DNA from: a virus
Lineage: Duplodnaviria > Heunggongvirae > Uroviricota > Caudoviricetes
Virus record (IMG/VR): IMGVR_UViG_3300029722_000070
Location: 1 to 6,005 of that record
Length of the DNA stretch: 6,005 nucleotides
Direction: 5' to 3' (one strand)
Shown: piece by piece, positions 1 to 6,005 of the stretch
How positions within the stretch are numbered: position 1 is the first letter of the stretch
Layout of the letters: every line of letters begins with the position of its first letter
Notes under the pieces: model-generated
Seen by the model: only the letters and a program-made list of their open reading frames with translations
Databases searched by the model: none
What the model was told of the DNA's origin: nothing
Position numbers and translations under genes: made by a program

Positions 1-213
1 CATTTGCGCTGTCACTTTCGGTACCGGTGACACCGGTTCACTTTCACCAGCCTGAATCAGCCACCACATCGAACCCTTGTTATCCGCTTCACCGCGGCGC
101 TTCAGTTTCCACAGTTCGTTGACCGCATCTTCACGGCTGATTCCAAGGCGGGCCGCCACTACCTGTGAAGAGGCTCTTTTCAGTGCTTTCAGTGCGTCAA
201 ATACGGTTTCCAT
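1..213 (-). CDS. Small hypothetical protein, possibly a winged-helix DNA-binding protein at the Ren position downstream of P; the 3' end runs off the left edge of the window
   Basis: ATG at 213-211 (complement) with GGAGGA 7 nt upstream (complement of 221-226). Reading frame is open to position 1. Translation begins METVFDALKALKRASSQVVAARLGISREDAVNELWKLKRRGEADNKGSMWWLIQ. It sits where ren lies in lambda, directly after the P-like gene. Not in the ORF track because no stop falls inside the window. Confidence 0.5.
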   Translation of the reverse strand, partial: METVFDALKALKRASSQVVAARLGISREDAVNELWKLKRRGEADNKGSMWWLIQAGESEPVSPVPKVTAQM

Positions 214-246
214 TAAAATTTCCTCCGACAAAATCGTTTCTCAGAT

Positions 247-909
247 TCAAATAAAACCAGCTGCCTTCCGGCGTTCGTATTCCTGTTTCAGCCGTTCAAT
301 TGGCGTTGGCCCTTGCGGGTGTTTCGCCCCTTCCAGTTGTCGTCGCACTGGCGGAACACTCATCCCGTTACCAACATGCTTTGCCCATTTCGTCAGTTGC
401 CGTTCCGCAAGTCGTTTTAACTCACCCTGCGTCATCTGGCGCTCAATCCCTCTGGTACGCATTTCGAGGCAGATGTGGTACAGCACAGGCTGTGGCCACG
501 GGTATTTATCACTCCCGTCGTATCGCCAGGATTCATTGCGCCAGCGCCGGTACTCTTCCATCACTGCATCCACCGTAAGACCAAATGGATTTGCCCCACT
601 CTCCGAAATCAGTGCAACAAACTCAGCCAGGTCCGGGGGCCACGTTTCACCCGCCCGGCAGCGGTCCATGCACTGACGGCAGACCAGCCGGATTTGCTGT
701 TCAGTCATCGTGCCAATCTGGGCAATCCATAGCTTCGAAGGTGCGGCCCCGTTCTTCTGTGTCCAGCGGTTCGAATACACCTCCCCCATAAGCTCCCACA
801 GCTTCCAGGCCGTTTCCGTTGCTGATAAATCCGTTGTCACGTTCCCACTGTTCGCGTGCTGCCCGGATTTCCTGAACTGCCCGTGATGCCGTGCCACCTG
901 ATGCTGCAT
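247..909 (-). CDS. Replication protein P-like (DnaB helicase loader, lambda P family)
   Basis: 220-aa ORF with AGGGGG Shine-Dalgarno about 7 nt upstream of the ATG at 909. From recalled sequence, the C-terminal half (YPWPQPVLYHICLEMRTRGIERQMTQGELKRLAERQLTKWAKHV) aligns with lambda P (YPWKSNAHYWLVTNLYQNMRANALTDAELRRKAADELVHMTARIN), and the central IGTMTEQQIRLVCRQ segment aligns with lambda P GITTMEQVNAGMRVAR. Position after an O-like gene fits. Confidence 0.78.
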   Translation of the reverse strand: MQHQVARHHGQFRKSGQHANSGNVTTDLSATETAWKLWELMGEVYSNRWTQKNGAAPSKLWIAQIGTMTEQQIRLVCRQCMDRCRAGETWPPDLAEFVALISESGANPFGLTVDAVMEEYRRWRNESWRYDGSDKYPWPQPVLYHICLEMRTRGIERQMTQGELKRLAERQLTKWAKHVGNGMSVPPVRRQLEGAKHPQGPTPIERLKQEYERRKAAGFI

Positions 910-1429
910 GGCTTACCCCCTTGCTGACTGGTTTTACCTGTGCCCTGACGTGCTGCACGTGGCGGGCAAATTTCTGCTCCCACTGAACCTGCGTGAAAAC
1001 CTTCCCCTCCGCCATCCAGTAATCCCGGAATGCGGCAAGCTCTGCAGGTGTAAATTCCGGCTCAGGCAGAGCCATACCCCACACTGCTGCCCGTTGTCGA
1101 AAATCCGACGACGGCTGCCAGACAGTAGTCATCAAAAATTTCCCGATCGGTTCGCTCAGGCCGTCCAGGTATTCAGGTTCGGCTGTCTGCAACGGCGCAC
1201 CATGCGACTCACCGGTTGGAGCACTCTCGCGCATGCGCGTGTTATGTGTGGGGTTTAATTCTGTATCTGTATCTTTATCTGTCGTGACTTGTCGTGACTT
1301 GTCGTGACAGATGCGTGACACGTCGTGACTCATCGTGACAATCAGCATCATATTTCCGCAGCTTTTCGCGCTCCCGCTGCGCTCTCTTGCGCTCTGCCGG
1401 GGATTTTGCCGTTTGCGAAACGTTACCAT
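701..1429 (-). CDS. O-like replication initiator, C-terminal portion; in a different frame from the N-terminal ORF, so probably a frameshifted gene or pseudogene
   Basis: 242-aa ORF. The first 60 or so residues are low-complexity and read through the repeat array, but from about residue 80 the sequence looks protein-like (FLMTTVWQPSSDFRQRAAVWGMALPEPEFTPAELAAFRDYWMAEGKVFTQVQWEQKFARHV). No convincing ribosome-binding site of its own. It overlaps ORF 1275-1754 by 155 nt and overlaps the P start by 209 nt in another frame. Confidence 0.4.
   Translation of the reverse strand: MVTFRKRQNPRQSARERSGSAKSCGNMMLIVTMSHDVSRICHDKSRQVTTDKDTDTELNPTHNTRMRESAPTGESHGAPLQTAEPEYLDGLSEPIGKFLMTTVWQPSSDFRQRAAVWGMALPEPEFTPAELAAFRDYWMAEGKVFTQVQWEQKFARHVQHVRAQVKPVSKGVSHAASGGTASRAVQEIRAAREQWERDNGFISNGNGLEAVGAYGGGVFEPLDTEERGRTFEAMDCPDWHDD
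1260..1283. repeat. Four tandem hexamers (TCTGTA TCTGTA TCTTTA TCTGTC), AT-rich, abutting repeat array A
   Basis: Read directly from the sequence at 1260-1283, preceded by TTTAATT. An AT-rich tract next to iterons is the usual layout for a DNA unwinding element. Confidence 0.5.
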
Positions 1430-1748
1430 TGTCCTCTTTCAGCACCTGACGTTTTTCCCATCCGGAAATAAGGTCACCATCCAGAACCCGCCCCTGCATT
1501 GCATGCAAAATTGAATCAATTACGTCTTCCGTCACATCAAGCGCACTTGCTAAATCTTCCGTCGTGACATCAATGTGACCACGTAGTGACACGCCGTGAC
1601 ATGTCGTGACATTTCGTGACGCACTCACCAGAAGGTGGATATACACCGCCATCACTGTTGCGATTGGCTGTCCTGAGACCCTGGCAATGGTTCGCCATTT
1701 GGGATCATTTGGCATGTCATGCCACAATCTGAGCCAGGCATTAGCCAT
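1275..1748 (-). CDS. O-like replication initiator, N-terminal (putative origin-binding) portion
   Basis: ORF track gives 1275-1754 from a GTG; the in-frame ATG at 1748-1746 has a GAGGTG Shine-Dalgarno just upstream and is preferred. It lies between the CII-position gene and the P-like gene, as O does in lambda. Both repeat arrays fall inside it. It ends at a stop inside repeat array A. Confidence 0.6.
   Translation of the reverse strand: MANAWLRLWHDMPNDPKWRTIARVSGQPIATVMAVYIHLLVSASRNVTTCHGVSLRGHIDVTTEDLASALDVTEDVIDSILHAMQGRVLDGDLISGWEKRQVLKEDNGNVSQTAKSPAERKRAQREREKLRKYDADCHDESRRVTHLSRQVTTSHDR
1284..1339. repeat. Iteron-like array A: six GTGAC cores (consensus TCGTGAC) phased at 10-11 bp
   Basis: GTGAC begins at 1284, 1294, 1304, 1315, 1325 and 1335 (spacings 10, 10, 11, 10, 10). 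The first three units are exact copies of GTCGTGACTT. Helical-turn phasing inside an initiator gene suggests initiator binding sites (ori). Confidence 0.7.
1564..1620. repeat. Iteron-like array B: six GTGAC cores phased at 10-11 bp
   Basis: GTGAC begins at 1564, 1575, 1586, 1596, 1606 and 1616 (spacings 11, 11, 10, 10, 10). Same core and phasing as array A, about 280 bp away, within the N-terminal coding part of the O-like gene. Confidence 0.7.
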
Positions 1749-1816
1749 ACTCACCTCATCTGATACCGAACTTTACCCTCGAACATCCGGAAGAAATCCG
1801 GCATGAATATTGTTGG

Positions 1817-2242
1817 TCAATGCACGACAACAGCATTACCAGGCTGACCACCACTGTTAGTCAGGGTGCCCCAGGCGATCGCCGCTGCGACAAAATCATC
1901 CACATCTTTCACCAGCCGATCCCTCCGTTCGACGATCTCACGGTAATATTCAGAGCTGTGACTGCGCATACGGGCCACCAGCAGAGGCGGCATTGCCTTT
2001 TCGATCGCCGGTAACAGAGCCTGAATTTTTTCAACAGCATCAGGGGTGTCTTTATCCAGCCAACGGAAAATTTTCTGGGTATTACGAGCCAGGGCTTCCG
2101 GATGGCTGTCGTCGTACAGTTCCGGGAACGTCATTCCCAGCTCGAAATACGCTTTGGTAATTTTCGCAGCCGGTACTTTTTCGCCGTCCGGATGCGCCCA
2201 GACATTCATCGCCATGCGGATATGTTCATGTTTGATTTTCAT
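1817..2242 (-). CDS. YdaT-like protein at the CII position
   Basis: 141-aa ORF whose ATG (2242-2240) overlaps the stop of the upstream cro-like gene (2239-2241) by 3 nt, which suggests translational coupling. It occupies the slot between cro and the replication genes. The MKIKHEHI N-terminus and length match my recollection of the YdaT family; this is from memory, not a search. Confidence 0.65.
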   Translation of the reverse strand: MKIKHEHIRMAMNVWAHPDGEKVPAAKITKAYFELGMTFPELYDDSHPEALARNTQKIFRWLDKDTPDAVEKIQALLPAIEKAMPPLLVARMRSHSSEYYREIVERRDRLVKDVDDFVAAAIAWGTLTNSGGQPGNAVVVH

Positions 2243-2454
2243 GAATCATTCTTTCCTTCGTTCGAGGTGCTATCCTGCTTCTTGTAAAGTTCTGGGTTGT
2301 ATTTCAATTCACCGTTAGTAATTTCATCCAGTTCCATTGCGCGAAGTTTGGGAATAACTGCTTTCCACCGCACAACAGCCACATGTGAAATTCCAAGAGC
2401 CTCAGCTACTAGTCGCTTTTTTTTGAAATAGCGCAGAACATCATCTTTGAACAT
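2239..2454 (-). CDS. cro: Cro-like HTH regulator (P22 Cro / YdaS family)
   Basis: 71-aa ORF with AGGAGAG Shine-Dalgarno 5-6 nt upstream of the ATG at 2454. The sequence MFKDDVLRYFKKKRLVAEALGISHVAVVRWKAVIPKLRAMELDEITNGELKYNPELY aligns along its length with P22 Cro as I recall it (MYKKDVIDHFGTQRAVAKALGISDAAVSQWKEVIPEKDAYRLEIVTAGALKYQ). It is divergent from the repressor gene. Confidence 0.85.
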   Translation of the reverse strand: MFKDDVLRYFKKKRLVAEALGISHVAVVRWKAVIPKLRAMELDEITNGELKYNPELYKKQDSTSNEGKNDS

Positions 2455-2483
2455 AAAACTCTCCTGTTATTTCGAGCAGAAGG

Positions 2484-2497
2484 GTAACAATAGTTAC
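2484..2497. promoter_or_regulatory. Candidate operator O1 (GTAAC-AATA-GTTAC)
   Basis: 14-bp site with perfect 5-bp inverted-repeat arms, read directly from the sequence. Confidence 0.55.
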
Positions 2498-2531
2498 ATA
2501 ACAATGTCAACCATAGCAACATCACTTGGTA

Positions 2532-2545
2532 GTAACATTGGTTAC
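2532..2545. promoter_or_regulatory. Candidate operator O2 (GTAAC-ATTG-GTTAC), abutting the repressor start codon
   Basis: Same arms and spacer length as O1, centred 48 bp from it, ending one base before the ATG at 2546. Confidence 0.55.
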
Positions 2546-3220
2546 ATGAAAAACACTATCAGCGAACGTATTCGGAATCGTCGAAAAGACGTTGGATTAA
2601 CCCAACAGCAGGTTGCGAAAGCAATCGGCATATCTCGTGTATCCGTAACAAAATGGGAAAATGGCTCTTCAAAACCTGACGGTGAGAATTTGTATCTACT
2701 GTCAAAATTGCTTTCCAAATCTCCTGAATGGATTCTTTATGGAAAGGACTGTCACGATAAAACCGATGATCTGCGTCTGAATCAGTACCCTTACATTAGT
2801 GACAACATCGCCCGGTTGCCCGTTTTAACGTGGGAACAGGCTGGTTATTGGGATATGAGTTGTCCAGTAACCAAGATTCCTGGTATTAAGAACTGGGTTG
2901 ATGTCATGACAAAAACCGCTGAAAACTCTTTTTTATTGCATGTTGAGGGAGATGCGATGACAAACTCTAACGGCCTCCCAACCATCCCCGACGGATCTAC
3001 CGTGCTGATTACACCATGCTCAAGTAACATTAGAGAACTGGTGGGAAAAATAATCTTAATCCAATTGGAAGGAACGCCAAACGTAACACTAAAAAAAGTT
3101 GCGATTGACGGACCAAACATCTATTTGTTGTCACTGAATCCGCTTTACAAACCCATCGAACTGAATGGTGGTTACACCATTAAAGGTAAAGTTTCACAAA
3201 TACATCAATACTTAGACTGA
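2546..3220 (+). CDS. cI: CI/C2-type immunity repressor (N-terminal HTH, C-terminal LexA-like S24 domain) with Ala at the nucleophile position
   Basis: ORF track gives 2447-3220. I chose the ATG at 2546 because MKNTISERIRNRRKDVGLTQQQVAKAIGISRVSVTKWENGSSKPDGENLYLLSKLLSKSPEWILYGKD aligns from residue 1 with the P22 C2 N-terminus as recalled (MNTQLMGERIRARRKKLKIRQAALGKMVGVSNVAISQWERSETEPNGENLLALSKALQCSPDYLLKGD), and because it leaves both operators intergenic. The C-terminal domain aligns with lambda CI and P22 C2: SFLLHVEGDAMT against SFWLDVQGDSMT, and VTLKKVA against ATFKKLV. No obvious Shine-Dalgarno, which fits a leaderless transcript as for lambda cI. Confidence 0.9.
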   Translation: MKNTISERIRNRRKDVGLTQQQVAKAIGISRVSVTKWENGSSKPDGENLYLLSKLLSKSPEWILYGKDCHDKTDDLRLNQYPYISDNIARLPVLTWEQAGYWDMSCPVTKIPGIKNWVDVMTKTAENSFLLHVEGDAMTNSNGLPTIPDGSTVLITPCSSNIRELVGKIILIQLEGTPNVTLKKVAIDGPNIYLLSLNPLYKPIELNGGYTIKGKVSQIHQYLD

Positions 3221-3225
3221 GTCAG

Positions 3226-3251
3226 AACCCGCATTCATTGCGGGTTTTTTA
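3226..3251 (+). terminator. Rho-independent terminator downstream of the repressor gene
   Basis: Stem AACCCGCA (3226-3233) and TGCGGGTT (3239-3246) with loop TTCAT, followed by TTTT (3247-3250). Begins 6 nt after the repressor stop codon. Confidence 0.75.
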
Positions 3252-3294
3252 TGCCCTCAAATGTACCTTTTGTAACATTGCATTGACTCGAAAG

Positions 3295-3308
3295 GTAACT
3301 CTTGTTAC
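3295..3308. promoter_or_regulatory. Candidate operator O3 (GTAAC-TCTT-GTTAC), OL-like, with a possible rightward early promoter
   Basis: Third copy of the GTAAC-N4-GTTAC palindrome, flanked as GGTAAC...GTTACC. A GTAAC half-site lies at 3272-3276 and a TTGACT hexamer at 3284-3289. It sits after the repressor terminator and upstream of the rightward small gene at 3490, the position OL/PL occupies relative to cI in lambda. Confidence 0.5.
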
Positions 3309-3489
3309 CCTAACAACATACCAACCCACCCCGCCCCACAGAACGCCGGGCAATACTGCGAGTTACCAGGCAGTGGTCAGGGGTTAAGTAGCCAGCCCGA
3401 GGCGTAAGAACATGACGGCAGGGTTCAACTTTAACTATGCAGCAGGTTTTTGTTCCGCTCCCCCGGCGTTAAGGGGAAATGAGGTCAGC

Positions 3490-3642
3490 ATGGATACTAT
3501 CGAGCTTGGCAACAGCGAATCTCTGGTATGCGGCGTGTTTCCCAACCAGGACGGCACGTTTACCGCGATGACGTATACCAGAAGCAAAACGTTTAAAACG
3601 GAAGCTGGCGCGCGTCGCTGGTTAGCAAGAAACTCTGACTGA
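3490..3642 (+). CDS. Small hypothetical protein, YdaF-like (DUF1391-type prophage protein)
   Basis: GAGG at 3481-3484, 5 nt before the ATG at 3490. 50-aa product MDTIELGNSESLVCGVFPNQDGTFTAMTYTRSKTFKTEAGARRWLARNSD. The ORF track starts the same frame at 3412 (76 aa); I prefer the shorter form for its ribosome-binding site and its resemblance to the roughly 50-aa Rac YdaF as I recall it. First gene right of the OL-like operator. Confidence 0.6.
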   Translation: MDTIELGNSESLVCGVFPNQDGTFTAMTYTRSKTFKTEAGARRWLARNSD

Positions 3643-3740
3643 TGAAGGTTAGTAATTAAAGAGTTCTCCACAGGCGAAGTGGAATACGTTCGCCGGACAC
3701 GGGTAAGCATTCGGCATGCTCTTTAACAATCTGGGTATTC

Positions 3741-4187
3741 CTAACCACAAAGGAATCGCATCAATTTGGATTTTGCAGACAGTTTCTCTTGTTGTTCTAC
3801 GGAGATTCCTATTTTGATCTGGGTTTTTAAGATTGCGATATCTTTAAGCGACGACCAAATATTATCATCTGTTTTTTCCAGGAGCTTTAACTGCATTTTC
3901 AATTCCGAATCGGAATATTTTTCTGCATCATCATAAAGCTGCAGATATTCTGCGGATTTTCTCATTGCGTTACCTGACTTTTGTCCGAATCCGTAAATCG
4001 TTTGAACGGTTGCTATCACAACAATGAGAACTCCAGAAACTTCAGGAATAAATCCACCAATGACAGATGAACCGAGGATAATACTCACCACTGAGAAAAG
4101 TTTATCGAGACGACCAGTCGCTACAGAGAATAGTTGTTCAAGAAAATAACCATATAAAACCCTGTCAAGAATATCATCCCGGTCCAT
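3741..4187 (-). CDS. Small membrane protein with two predicted transmembrane helices; candidate superinfection-exclusion protein (SieB-like)
   Basis: 148-aa ORF with AGGTGA 7 nt upstream of the ATG at 4187. Two adjacent hydrophobic segments (LFSVVSIILGSSVIGGFI and VSGVLIVVIATVQTIYGF) followed by a charged, helix-prone C-terminus. It is oriented against its neighbours, as sieB is in the Rac prophage. No competing ORF on the other strand. Confidence 0.6.
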   Translation of the reverse strand: MDRDDILDRVLYGYFLEQLFSVATGRLDKLFSVVSIILGSSVIGGFIPEVSGVLIVVIATVQTIYGFGQKSGNAMRKSAEYLQLYDDAEKYSDSELKMQLKLLEKTDDNIWSSLKDIAILKTQIKIGISVEQQEKLSAKSKLMRFLCG

Positions 4188-4246
4188 ATATCATCACCTG
4201 CTTGTTTGATTGTTGCTGTTCCCCCTCTCCTCTGAAGGAGCTGGAG

Positions 4247-4435
4247 ATGGTTTTGGTCGAATGTTTTTCTCAGGTATATGTTTCCTGGTATTCGGAATGT
4301 CCGCCCTGTCCGCAGGCTTACCAGTACCTGAACAATTCTTTTGAACCACCATATAAAACACCTTCCTGTTGTTGGGGATATCCAGATTATACAGATTTCC
4401 TGTTATTGGGGAATGACGGAAACCACCTCGCCTGA
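4247..4435 (+). CDS. Candidate small cysteine- and aromatic-rich protein (62 aa); uncertain
   Basis: GAAGGAG Shine-Dalgarno (4234-4240) 6 nt before the ATG at 4247. Product MVLVECFSQVYVSWYSECPPCPQAYQYLNNSFEPPYKTPSCCWGYPDYTDFLLLGNDGNHLA has 6 Cys in 62 residues. The ORF track lists the same frame from 4202. No homolog recognised and codon usage looks atypical, so it may be spurious. Confidence 0.2.
   Translation: MVLVECFSQVYVSWYSECPPCPQAYQYLNNSFEPPYKTPSCCWGYPDYTDFLLLGNDGNHLA
4363..4412. repeat. Pair of 16-bp direct repeats TTCCTGTTRTTGGGGA
   Basis: Copies at 4363-4378 (TTCCTGTTGTTGGGGA) and 4397-4412 (TTCCTGTTATTGGGGA), one mismatch, start-to-start spacing 34 bp. They fall in different frames of the 4247 ORF, so this is a DNA-level repeat rather than a peptide repeat. 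Confidence 0.5.
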
Positions 4436-4665
4436 CGTGGTTAAAAGCAGGCACACAACACGAAAGCGCACGGCGAGATTCCTTTGCATATAAGGCTTGT
4501 CGTTAAATTTCTTCGACCGTGCACTTCCGGTTGTGGCAGTCCGCGAAATGGCGCGGCGGTAAGTATGGCTGGGGCTTCCTCCATTGCTCCAGAAAATGCA
4601 CCGGGTCGTCAGGTTGACCATACGCTTAAGTGACAGCCCCGCCACAATACCCATGCGTAGTCTTT

Positions 4666-4709
4666 GGTGGCATCAGTTCTACTCCGTGACTGCTCTGCCA
4701 CCCTTTTTA
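4666..4709 (+). terminator. Candidate intrinsic terminator or RNA 3' hairpin
   Basis: GGTGGCA (4666-4672) pairs with TGCCACC (4696-4702), with an inner CAGT/ACTG pairing, followed by CTTTTT (4703-4708). The loop is long (23 nt), so the call is weak. Confidence 0.3.
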
Positions 4710-4814
4710 AAGTGAATTTTGTGATGCGGTGAATGCGGCTATGCGCACGCGGAACAGTTAAAACCGTAAAGTGGTCTTTTACGGGGCGTAACGGGCATCC
4801 TTCTGTATTCCGGC

Positions 4815-4854
4815 GTTAATTGTTAACTGGTTAACGTCACCTGGAGGCACCAGG
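4815..4854. promoter_or_regulatory. Cluster of GTTAA(C) motifs plus a short hairpin upstream of the 4891 gene; candidate regulatory site
   Basis: GTTAATTGTTAACTGGTTAAC at 4815-4835, with inverted arms TTAAC (4823-4827) and GTTAA (4830-4834). Hairpin CCTGG-AGGCA-CCAGG at 4840-4854. Lies 35-75 bp upstream of the ATG at 4891. Confidence 0.3.
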
Positions 4855-4890
4855 CACTGCATCACAAAATTCATTGTTGAGGACGCGATA

Positions 4891-5079
4891 ATGGAAACGT
4901 TATTACCAAACGTTAATACGTCTGAAGGTTGTTTTGATATTGGAGTTCTGCTCAGTAACCGGGAGTTTACTGAAGATGCCATTAAGATGAGAAAATATGA
5001 ACCTTATCTTCTCAATGATAATTCCATACTTTCCAGAATTGCCCTTCTTGAACTTGGTATTATCGGAGAACAGCAGTGA
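4891..5079 (+). CDS. Small hypothetical protein (62 aa), early-operon gene
   Basis: GAGG at 4879-4882, 8 nt before the ATG. Product METLLPNVNTSEGCFDIGVLLSNREFTEDAIKMRKYEPYLLNDNSILSRIALLELGIIGEQQ. No homolog recognised. Confidence 0.5.
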   Translation: METLLPNVNTSEGCFDIGVLLSNREFTEDAIKMRKYEPYLLNDNSILSRIALLELGIIGEQQ

Positions 5080-5096
5080 CTTCAGCATTTGCACTG

Positions 5097-5240
5097 ATGA
5101 TGACCGTTTTTCTTATAACGGGCGAGCCACAGACTGTGATTACCGGAATTTTTGCCAGTAAAGAATCCCGCCTCCAGGCAAGAGACAAGCAAAAAATTTC
5201 TGGTGAATGCCTCCCGTTAAAAAAGTATCGCTGTACCTGA
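5097..5240 (+). CDS. Candidate small protein (47 aa from the ATG at 5097, or 54 aa from the GTG at 5076), possibly Kil-like
   Basis: The GTG at 5076-5078 overlaps the TGA stop of the preceding gene (5077-5079, GTGA overlap), suggesting translational coupling. Product MMTVFLITGEPQTVITGIFASKESRLQARDKQKISGECLPLKKYRCT has a hydrophobic N-terminus and a basic C-terminus. Absent from the ORF track, presumably for length. The Kil comparison rests only on size and position. Confidence 0.3.
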   Translation: MMTVFLITGEPQTVITGIFASKESRLQARDKQKISGECLPLKKYRCT

Positions 5241-5357
5241 ATAACGAAACACCGGCTGGATAACCCGCCAGCCATATTAACACCATACCAACGGATTAAA
5301 AATGCCAGCAATGGCAGGGATTCGTTCACCCTGAAATCTGTCATGAGGTTAAAACAA

Positions 5358-6005
5358 ATGAGTAAAGTCTTTATTTGCGCCGCTATTCCTGACGAACTGG
5401 CAACAAGGGAAGAAGGCGCTGTGGCTGTAGCCACAGCCATTGAAGCTGGCGACGAACGCCGTGCTCGAGCAAAATTTCACTGGCAGTTCCTGGAACATTA
5501 TCCGGCTGCTCAGGACTGCGCTTATAAATTTATTGTCTGCGAGGATAAACCTGGCATACCCCGCCCTGCCCTCGATTCATGGGATGCTGAATATATGCAG
5601 GAAAACCGCTGGGATGAGGAGTCTGCTTCTTTTGTCCCGGTTGAGACTGAATCCGATCCGATGAACGTCACTTTTGACAAGCTGGCCCCTGAAGTACAGA
5701 ACGCTGTCATGGTTAAGTTCGACACATGTGAAAACATCACCGTTGATATGGTTATTAGCGCACAGGAATTGTTGCAGGAAGACATGGCAACATTCGACGG
5801 ACATATCGTTGAAGCGTTGATGAAAATGCCAGAAGTTAACGCCATGTATCCGGAGCTTAAGTTGCACGCCATTGGGTGGGTTAAGCATAAATGTATTCCT
5901 GGTGCTAAATGGCCCGAAATTCAGGCAGAGATGCGCATCTGGAAAAAACGTCGCGAAGGTGAACGCAAGGAAACCGGAAAATACACGTCTGTTGTTGATC
6001 TCGCC
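5358..6005 (+). CDS. Hypothetical acidic protein, 5' partial view (at least 216 aa, continues past the window)
   Basis: GAGG at 5345-5348, 9 nt before the ATG at 5358. Frame is open through 6005. Product begins MSKVFICAAIPDELATREEGAVAVATAIEAGDERRARAKFHWQFLEHYPAAQDCAYKFIVCEDKPGIPRPALDSWDAEYMQENRWDEE. Not in the ORF track because it has no in-window stop. The listed ORFs 5440-5664, 5522-5872 and 5577-5888 overlap it in other frames and look spurious. Confidence 0.7.
   Translation, partial: MSKVFICAAIPDELATREEGAVAVATAIEAGDERRARAKFHWQFLEHYPAAQDCAYKFIVCEDKPGIPRPALDSWDAEYMQENRWDEESASFVPVETESDPMNVTFDKLAPEVQNAVMVKFDTCENITVDMVISAQELLQEDMATFDGHIVEALMKMPEVNAMYPELKLHAIGWVKHKCIPGAKWPEIQAEMRIWKKRREGERKETGKYTSVVDLA

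Follow-up and report, generated by a model that had tools for sequence, protein, structure and literature searches.

Phased arrays of a six-base-pair core within a prophage initiator gene are probable iterons of an in-gene replication origin

Why should the replication initiator gene of a lambdoid prophage carry two separate runs of one short sequence, each repeated at about every turn of the DNA helix? The question arose from a 6,005-nucleotide stretch of viral DNA (hereafter the window; positions 1 to 6,005 of the Caudoviricetes record IMGVR_UViG_3300029722_000070 in IMG/VR), which matches, at 100% identity, a segment of a lambdoid prophage of Escherichia coli SCU-104 and covers its immunity and replication region. 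An earlier note on this DNA had described two arrays, A and B, each with six GTGAC cores at 10-11 bp spacing, in what it called an O-like initiator gene. As detailed below, comparison of related loci leads us to regard the arrays as probable cis-acting iterons of the prophage's theta-type origin, situated within the initiator's own gene and read by the N-terminal domain (N-domain) of the initiator.

The described positions were confirmed. On the plus strand, GTGAC begins at 1284, 1294, 1304, 1315, 1325, and 1335 in array A (spacings of 10, 10, 11, 10, and 10 bp) and at 1564, 1575, 1586, 1596, 1606, and 1616 in array B (spacings of 11, 11, 10, 10, and 10 bp). All twelve cores lie head-to-tail on one strand, and both arrays are located inside the initiator coding region (701-1748, minus strand), as had been claimed; on the coding strand of this minus-strand gene, the core therefore reads GTCAC(G). 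Tandem Repeats Finder reported period-10 arrays at 1280-1339 and 1586-1620. The window contains 26 copies of GTGAC on both strands, compared with 11.45 ± 3.3 after dinucleotide shuffling (a count of 26 was reached in none of 200 shuffles), and ten same-strand neighbor pairs at 10-11 bp, whereas 2000 first-order Markov simulations averaged 0.02 such pairs and never exceeded 2. Even the best-phased 5-mer of any sequence in the simulated windows formed only 1-2 pairs. The phased arrays are therefore non-random. Across the family of related genes, the full core is the 6-bp sequence GTCACG (the +6 position is G in 148 of 171 units), and the mean unit spacing of ∼10.2 bp (10 bp in 94 instances and 11 bp in 29) fits the one-turn phasing that the earlier note had read as placing all sites on one face of the DNA.

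A repeat within a gene may reflect nothing more than a repeated peptide, and the earlier note had named a codon-level protein repeat, lacking DNA-level conservation among homologs, as a finding that would undo its proposal. Codons were read at positions set by a protein anchor, independent of the motif, in homologous loci from one genome per species; these covered ∼23 genera and a locus GC content from 0.34 (Entomomonas) to 0.70 (Pseudothauera). The 10-11 bp period is not a multiple of 3, so the core is read in all three frames, with GTC-ACG giving Val-Thr, xGT-CAC-Gxx giving Cys/Gly-His, and xxG-TCA-CGx giving Ser-Arg. In array B, Ser44 was encoded by TCA in 22 of 23 loci (TCA accounts for 16% of usage elsewhere in these genes), Val47 by GTC in 23 of 23 (22% elsewhere), Thr48 by ACG in 23 of 23 (24%), Gly50 by GGT in 22 of 22 (17%), and Val54 by GTC in 22 of 22 (22%). 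The corresponding values for array A were 18 of 18 for His as CAC (60% elsewhere), Ser as TCA (16%), and Val as GTC (22%). The occurrence of the core in three frames, together with synonymous codons that are near-invariant across genera, shows that the arrays are under DNA-level selection. Judged from these codons, the peptides SRNVTRGHVDVT and CHDESRNVT are mere translations of the arrays.

A repeated peptide motif with no DNA function would account for the encoded residues (SR, VT, GH, and CHD) being invariant or almost so in protein alignments, but it fits poorly with the reading of the core in all three frames and with the fixation of synonymous codons over a GC range of 0.34-0.70. Array A encodes the interdomain linker (..CHDESRRVTHLSRQVTT) and array B encodes N-domain residues ∼44-62 (SRNVTTCHGVSLRGHIDVT); in an AlphaFold2 (AF2) model these segments form a disordered linker and a low-confidence loop, respectively, and the peptide is replaced wholesale when the DNA core changes. 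We consider a peptide-only explanation extremely unlikely, and the codon-level protein repeat was rejected on the protein-anchored codon counts in both arrays.

The same type of evidence extends to the DNA that adjoins array A. The AT-rich TCTGTA hexamers noted earlier do abut this array, appearing in Tandem Repeats Finder as a period-6 array at 1260-1282, and GC content over 1240-1289 falls to 0.33-0.37, the joint lowest value in the gene with a dip at 1500-1529. On the coding strand, (GATAAA/GATACA)n follows directly past array A throughout the family, with an AT content of 0.60-0.81 in most loci, and the AT tract is kept even in loci of 60-70% GC. Within it, Asp is encoded by GAT in 62 of 64 cases (versus 47% in the rest of the same genes) and Lys by AAA in 58 of 65 (versus 45%). 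By this codon usage, the tract is under DNA-level selection. The hexamer copy number varied by 6 or 12 bp among E. coli strains, always in frame (loci L003 and L004, alignment A1).

Related initiator genes were searched for the same phased arrays, a check that the earlier note had proposed, and these were found at the same gene offsets in ∼23 genera: GTCAC occurs at offsets 128, 138, 148, and 159 (array B) and then at ∼388-417 (e.g., 388, 398, and 408). Hosts with this layout include Shigella, E. albertii, Aquitalea, Entomomonas, Serratia, Rahnella, Bordetella, Pseudomonas, Acidovorax, Stenotrophomonas, Pseudothauera, and others. The 10-10-11 signature was detected in >119 IMG/VR viral contigs, most with a pair of same-strand matches separated by 260 or 271 bp, and the isolated Pseudomonas phage P7869 carries both arrays. 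The array-A segment matched 404 of 5426 complete E. coli genomes, with O157:H7 and related strains dominating among the matches listed, and a search with the N-domain returned 975 protein clusters. Array B was present in approximately three-fourths of the loci examined. Wherever homologs were examined, the repeats lay inside the initiator coding sequence. Phage Evi, whose complete genome spans 40 kb, has no phased runs of the core other than the two arrays, and no distant second site like the oriR of phage SPP1 was found there.

More diverged homologs that lack GTCAC carry an alternative core at these two sites, and both of their arrays share it. These cores are CGAACG(C) (for example, in loci L039, L043, L045, L055, L053, and L056), GTAACG (L032, L034, L040, L042, L048, and L049), and GCAACG (L061). 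Among close relatives, both arrays differ together between L032/L034 (GTAACG) and L036 (GTCACG). Pseudomonas hosts the GTCAC and CGAACG classes and enterobacteria host the GTCAC and GTAAC classes; because one host genus carries different core classes, the reader of the core is presumably encoded by the element rather than by the host.

Which part of the initiator might be this reader? The open reading frame (ORF) of the N-domain occupies 1275-1748 on the minus strand (157 amino acids, start ATG at 1748), and the DnaT-like C-terminal part of the initiator runs on in another frame to 701, with the Pfam DnaT DNA-binding domain (PF17948) matched in the 701-1429 frame at E 7.2e-17. The protein is not a full-length equivalog of E. 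coli DnaT, as NF002770 gave 94.5 bits compared with a cutoff of 201 and matched residues 196-271 only. Elsewhere in the family, the N-domain and arrays are joined to DnaT-like, Phg_2220_C, or unrelated C-domains, and the downstream partner is a lambda P, a DnaB-type helicase, a primase-helicase (phage P7869), or a DUF6475 protein. No phased repeats were found in an E. coli DUF1376-type initiator that shares both the C-domain and the P gene. By these comparisons, the N-domain alone constantly accompanies the arrays. The arrays travel with the N-domain and are not tied to a fixed C-domain or helicase partner. A mosaic junction is situated directly past the hexamer tract (window ∼1240-1260; L010, 594-1658; L068, 1552-2562). 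In strain DA61218 and in phages 606R7 and Evi, the N-domain and arrays are fused to an unrelated C-domain, and a DUF977/LygF gene comes next in place of the P gene.

The N-domain appears closest in fold to the winged helix of the DnaD N-terminal domain (DnaD-NTD) and RepA_N; its AF2 model is of moderate confidence. PHROG matches were weak, comprising phrog_10469 ("DnaD-like helicase loader", E 6e-9) and phrog_4880 ("replisome organizer", E 6e-6), and NCBI source names for the family read "phage replisome organizer". The designation of the initiator as O-like is best restricted to function: the protein is an analog, not a homolog, of lambda O, with no Phage_rep_O match and a putative DnaD-NTD/RepA_N-like fold. 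The model contains helices at residues 4-14, 16-25, 29-45, 63-70, and 74-84, a beta-hairpin at ∼85-95, and a basic helix at 117-134. The array-B-encoded loop is of low confidence (predicted local distance difference test, pLDDT, <50 at residues 49-54), and the array-A-encoded segment forms a disordered tail (pLDDT <50 at 138-140 and 148-157). The sequence of the basic helix differs by core class, reading ERKRxQRERE with GTCACG, R[VA]xx[YF]RE[KR] with GTAACG, ER[AG]KxWRE with CGAACG, and ERSRxHRxRK with GCAACG, and a 9-residue insertion beside it also varies by core class (residues ∼104-134, window ∼1350-1440). The basic helix and the insertion are candidate specificity determinants, with the proviso that shared ancestry confounds the pattern.

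In the mechanism that we favor, the N-domain, with its putative DnaD-NTD/RepA_N-like winged helix and its basic helix, would recognize the 6-bp core GTCACG. With units of 10-11 bp each, arranged head-to-tail, the bound protomers would line one DNA face per array, and unwinding would take place next to array A, at the (GATAAA/GATACA)n tract with its high AT content and purine skew. The variable C-domain (DnaT-like here) and its partner (lambda-P-like here) would then recruit the host DnaB helicase. Array B, ∼230 bp upstream, would serve as a second, co-evolving array that strengthens or organizes the complex via local initiator concentration, wrapping, or looping. Among these steps, we infer the binding of the initiator, the melting at the tract, and the role of array B.

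Several observations weigh against this assignment. The N-terminal ORF gave no Pfam match at E ≤ 0.01, Phage_rep_O and RepA_N included, so that it is not a sequence member of Pfam RepA_N or Phage_rep_org_N; a PDB sequence search gave no match; and the Foldseek comparison of the N-domain model with the PDB was not significant at its best E value of 0.096. The mean pLDDT of the model (70.7) is moderate. DnaD-NTD itself does not bind DNA (PMC7145576), and in the present model the helix at the usual recognition position (residues 74-84) is acidic. The linkage of arrays and N-domain is in part built in, given that the arrays are located within or beside the N-domain coding sequence. The AT tract of the window is modest, with ∼65% AT over ∼40 bp. 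Finally, the searchable literature yielded no published description of the two-array layout or of an origin for this initiator family, only analogies.

The acidic putative recognition helix and the DnaD-NTD winged helix, which is no DNA binder, would suit a different explanation, in which the arrays are sites for another factor, either a host protein or another phage regulator, that acts in regulation or packaging. The core class is, however, independent of host taxonomy, with two classes each in Pseudomonas and enterobacteria, and the neighboring genes vary among loci, both in the downstream partner and in the upstream regulators, with no other gene constantly linked. In addition, the position of the array and the AT tract that follows it match known in-gene origins. 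We judge a role for another factor to be quite improbable, and a host-factor site was rejected as the principal explanation since core class does not track host taxonomy.

Array B may help initiation, or it may restrain it. One alternative holds that array A and the AT tract form the origin proper and that array B is an initiator-bound control site outside the opening complex, which would autoregulate the initiator gene by blocking its transcription or translation, or would limit re-initiation through titration or handcuffing. Iteron plasmids offer familiar examples of control iterons that are distinct from those of the origin. Array B is set apart from the AT tract by 209-319 bp, with ordinary coding sequence intervening, its units vary from 4 to 6 with the reading frame kept, and only the downstream array was detected in the diverged loci L046, L052, L057, L059, L060, and L062. 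On the other hand, the array B codons are fixed as strongly as those of array A, array B switches its core along with array A, and it is present in about three-fourths of the loci. We judge a control site somewhat unlikely and favor array B as a probable component of the origin.

The spacing between the arrays bears on how they might cooperate. Among 100 two-array loci, the gaps mostly follow a 10-bp ladder (209, 219, 229, and 239 bp) with outliers of 227, 247, 258, 278, and 319 bp, and the 229-bp gap of the window is common to 70 of these loci. The ladder can be attributed to gain or loss of units. The looping raised by the earlier note does not gain support in the form of a rigid geometry, because the inter-array helical phase is not cleanly conserved, a further point against that aspect of the proposed mechanism. 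A more elaborate version, amounting to a widespread and hitherto undescribed origin architecture, in which the two co-evolving arrays would keep a fixed two-site arrangement, initiator filaments on them would be bridged by a loop or wrap of ∼230-260 bp, and selection on the origin DNA would dictate invariant initiator residues (SRNVTRGHVDVT and CHDESRNVT), seems to us unlikely. In its strongest form, the array-encoded peptides or the class-covarying basic helix would read their own coding DNA, and origin and initiator specificity would switch as one self-referential unit.

Are six cores per array the native state? The usual numbers are 3-5 in array A and 4 (or 6) in array B, and six cores in each array does not represent the native layout. 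Array A had 3, 4, or 5 units in 98 of the 100 two-array loci and six units in 1 of 100, and intact E. coli alleles have ≤5; array B had 4 units in 67 loci and 6 in 25. Alignment with eight homologs revealed a 10-bp insertion in array A that is unique to the window. The reading frame of the window stops at 1275 (...SRQVTTSHDR*), where intact alleles go on (...SRQVTTDKDTDKDTDTE...), as in the intact initiator allele WP_001262402.1 of 347 amino acids. PGAP marks the initiator of the identical SCU-104 record as "frameshifted". The six-unit array A allele also occurs in three O157:H7 genomes; the annotation of one of these, ECP19-598 (L066), was read and states "frameshifted; internal stop". Only 5 of the 404 matching E. 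coli genomes are ≥99% identical over array A. By this comparison of alleles, the sixth array A unit is a gene-killing slippage product and six is not the native state. The 1275-1748 product, which the earlier note had taken as the N-terminal domain, is the truncated protein of a frameshifted pseudogene and no natural domain. Because the slipped-in unit frameshifts the gene, the full-length initiator is presumably not made from the window, while the origin DNA is still present; the truncated 157-amino-acid N-domain may nevertheless be produced and could serve as an inhibitor that binds the origin. Proteins from 6-unit and 4-unit array B alleles (e.g., L001 and L010) differ by 7 residues in the N-domain loop. 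Frame-keeping unit changes survive, and single-unit changes do not.

This variability brings up the further possibility that the repeats are chiefly substrates of recombination or slippage, either as a domain-shuffling junction or as an on/off contingency locus. The placement of the mosaic breakpoint directly past the hexamer tract, where the shared N-domain gives way to unrelated C-domains, the variable unit numbers, and the +10-bp allele are all compatible with such a role; this allele disables the initiator gene of SCU-104 and of one or more O157:H7 strains, and two further O157:H7 genomes share it. It leaves unexplained, however, the presence of array B inside the N-domain, the near-perfect 6-bp core at one-turn spacing across genera, and the concerted switching of cores; slippage and shuffling are better seen as by-products. 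The six-unit array A is rare, with 1 instance among 100 two-array loci and 5 among 404 E. coli genomes, and this rarity points to decay rather than a regulated switch. We regard this possibility as highly improbable, and an origin within the initiator gene remains the preferred interpretation of the arrays.

Origins inside initiator genes are already classical from lambda, P22, and SPP1. In ori-lambda, a single cluster of four 18-bp iterons adjoins an AT-rich tract of 38 bp, all within gene O (PMC3349717). The present locus resembles it in placing the putative origin in the initiator gene at the junction of the DNA-binding N-domain and the partner-binding C-domain (as also in P22 gene 18), in having iterons that lead directly into an AT-rich tract coding for a Lys/Asp/Thr-rich linker (PMC3349717; PMC8022706), and in the lambda-P-like gene that follows in the window. 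It differs, as the earlier note had recognized in contrasting the layout with the single cluster of lambda, by its 10-11 bp units with a 6-bp core, arranged head-to-tail in two arrays that are 209-319 bp apart, and by an initiator that lacks lambda O homology and has a putative DnaD-NTD-like N-domain fold. The iterons of lambda have internal dyad symmetry. In-gene arrays of one-turn units have a precedent in gene 18 of the Salmonella P22-like phage L, an O-like gene with six imprecise repeats of the 11-bp TGTCCAACGGA, proposed as an origin from sequence alone (PMC8022706); that case involves a single array, another core, and a distantly O-like initiator, with no second array reported and no family-wide analysis.

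Other systems share parts of this organization. In SPP1, oriL within gene 38 has boxes bound by G38P and an adjacent AT-rich DNA-unwinding element, with the helicase loader and helicase encoded downstream (PMC5737612). The likeness is one of organization, in that a replisome-organizer gene holds its own origin, but the second G38P region, oriR, is far off in the SPP1 genome, whereas both arrays here are within ∼300 bp of one gene. Compared with the RepA_N initiators of plasmids and PLE (pSK41, pTZ2162, and PLE RepA), the present system has short direct repeats and no Pfam RepA_N match. SaPI origins contain penta- or hexanucleotide iterons in two sets that are recognized by a winged-helix domain (PMC9371898), and they thus resemble the present arrays in having short iterons in two sets. 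The SaPI sets, however, are located downstream of rep, where they flank the AT region in opposite orientations, and SaPI initiators are self-loading helicases, whereas the arrays described here share one orientation, are both on the same side of the AT tract, and are in-gene. What appears to be new is the conserved two-array layout of direct one-turn units, its spread among prophages and phages of Gamma-, Beta-, and Alphaproteobacteria, the concerted core switching in both arrays, and the resulting fixation of the initiator's own amino acid sequence.

These results offer a concrete putative origin for a large, uncharacterized family of replication modules from temperate phages. The four core classes GTCACG, GTAACG, CGAACG, and GCAACG would predict replication-specificity groups and may therefore predict cross-activation or interference among co-resident prophages. 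The locus also represents a form of dual coding in which a DNA signal that acts in cis determines the codons as well as the amino acids of its presumed reader protein. Moreover, it illustrates a route of prophage decay in which the gain of one 10-bp iteron leads to an initiator frameshift, as in SCU-104 and the O157:H7 genomes. The coordinates of the features are compiled in Table 1.

Table 1. Features of the window, with positions numbered from its first nucleotide
Feature	Position	Strand	Description
Array A	1283..1339	-	Six units; core CGTGAC on the plus strand, GTCACG coding; proposed origin-proximal iteron array
Array B	1563..1620	-	Six units; core (C)GTGAC on the plus strand; proposed second iteron array
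Two identical 10-bp units, TGTCGTGACT ×2	1280..1299	-	One is an extra unit without counterpart in intact alleles; causes the frameshift
AT-rich hexamer tract	1245..1282	-	TCTGTA/TCTTTA on the plus strand, GATACA/GATAAA coding; (Asp-Thr/Lys)n linker; proposed DNA-unwinding element
21-bp two-unit (10+11) in-frame segment	∼1583..1603	-	In 6-unit, not 4-unit, array B alleles; alignment A1 columns 397-417
Single inverted core (GTCAC on the plus strand)	1531..1535	+	29 bp from array B; encodes V-T of LDVTE
Lambda-P-like helicase-loader gene	247-708	-	Overlaps initiator stop; Pfam Phage_lambda_P PF06992, E 1.4e-15; PGAP "replication protein P"
Initiator ("replisome organizer") gene	701-1748	-	Frameshifted here; PGAP annotation of the 100% identical record
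YdaT/cII-position gene	1817-2242	-	
cro	2239-2454	-	
LexA/cI-type repressor gene	2504-3220	+	
DicF small RNA	4652-4703	+	Rfam RF00039, 58.9 bits, E 2e-11
dicB (cell-division inhibitor)	4891-5079	+	

Some loci depart from the simple arrangement of direct units. The inverted core at 1531-1535 has a counterpart (coding-strand GTGAC at gene offset 192) in most, not all, GTCAC-class loci, the offset being 180 in loci whose match begins at residue 5. In the Lysobacter locus L063, six GTCAC at 9-10 bp occur near the N-terminus (offsets 56-103; VTSVTSVTNVT), and a second array (offsets 373-424) has the opposite orientation. In a Pantoea/Enterobacter/Erwinia subgroup (L032/L034/L036), direct units are mixed with palindromes such as GTAACGTTAC or GTCACGTGAC.

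Within the window, the DnaT-like frame (701-1429, minus strand) is open for ∼150 nucleotides upstream of the frameshift, with an ATG at 1429. Farther along the window, the DicF antisense small RNA is located upstream of dicB, and this dicF-dicB order is the classic Qin/Rac-type prophage arrangement.

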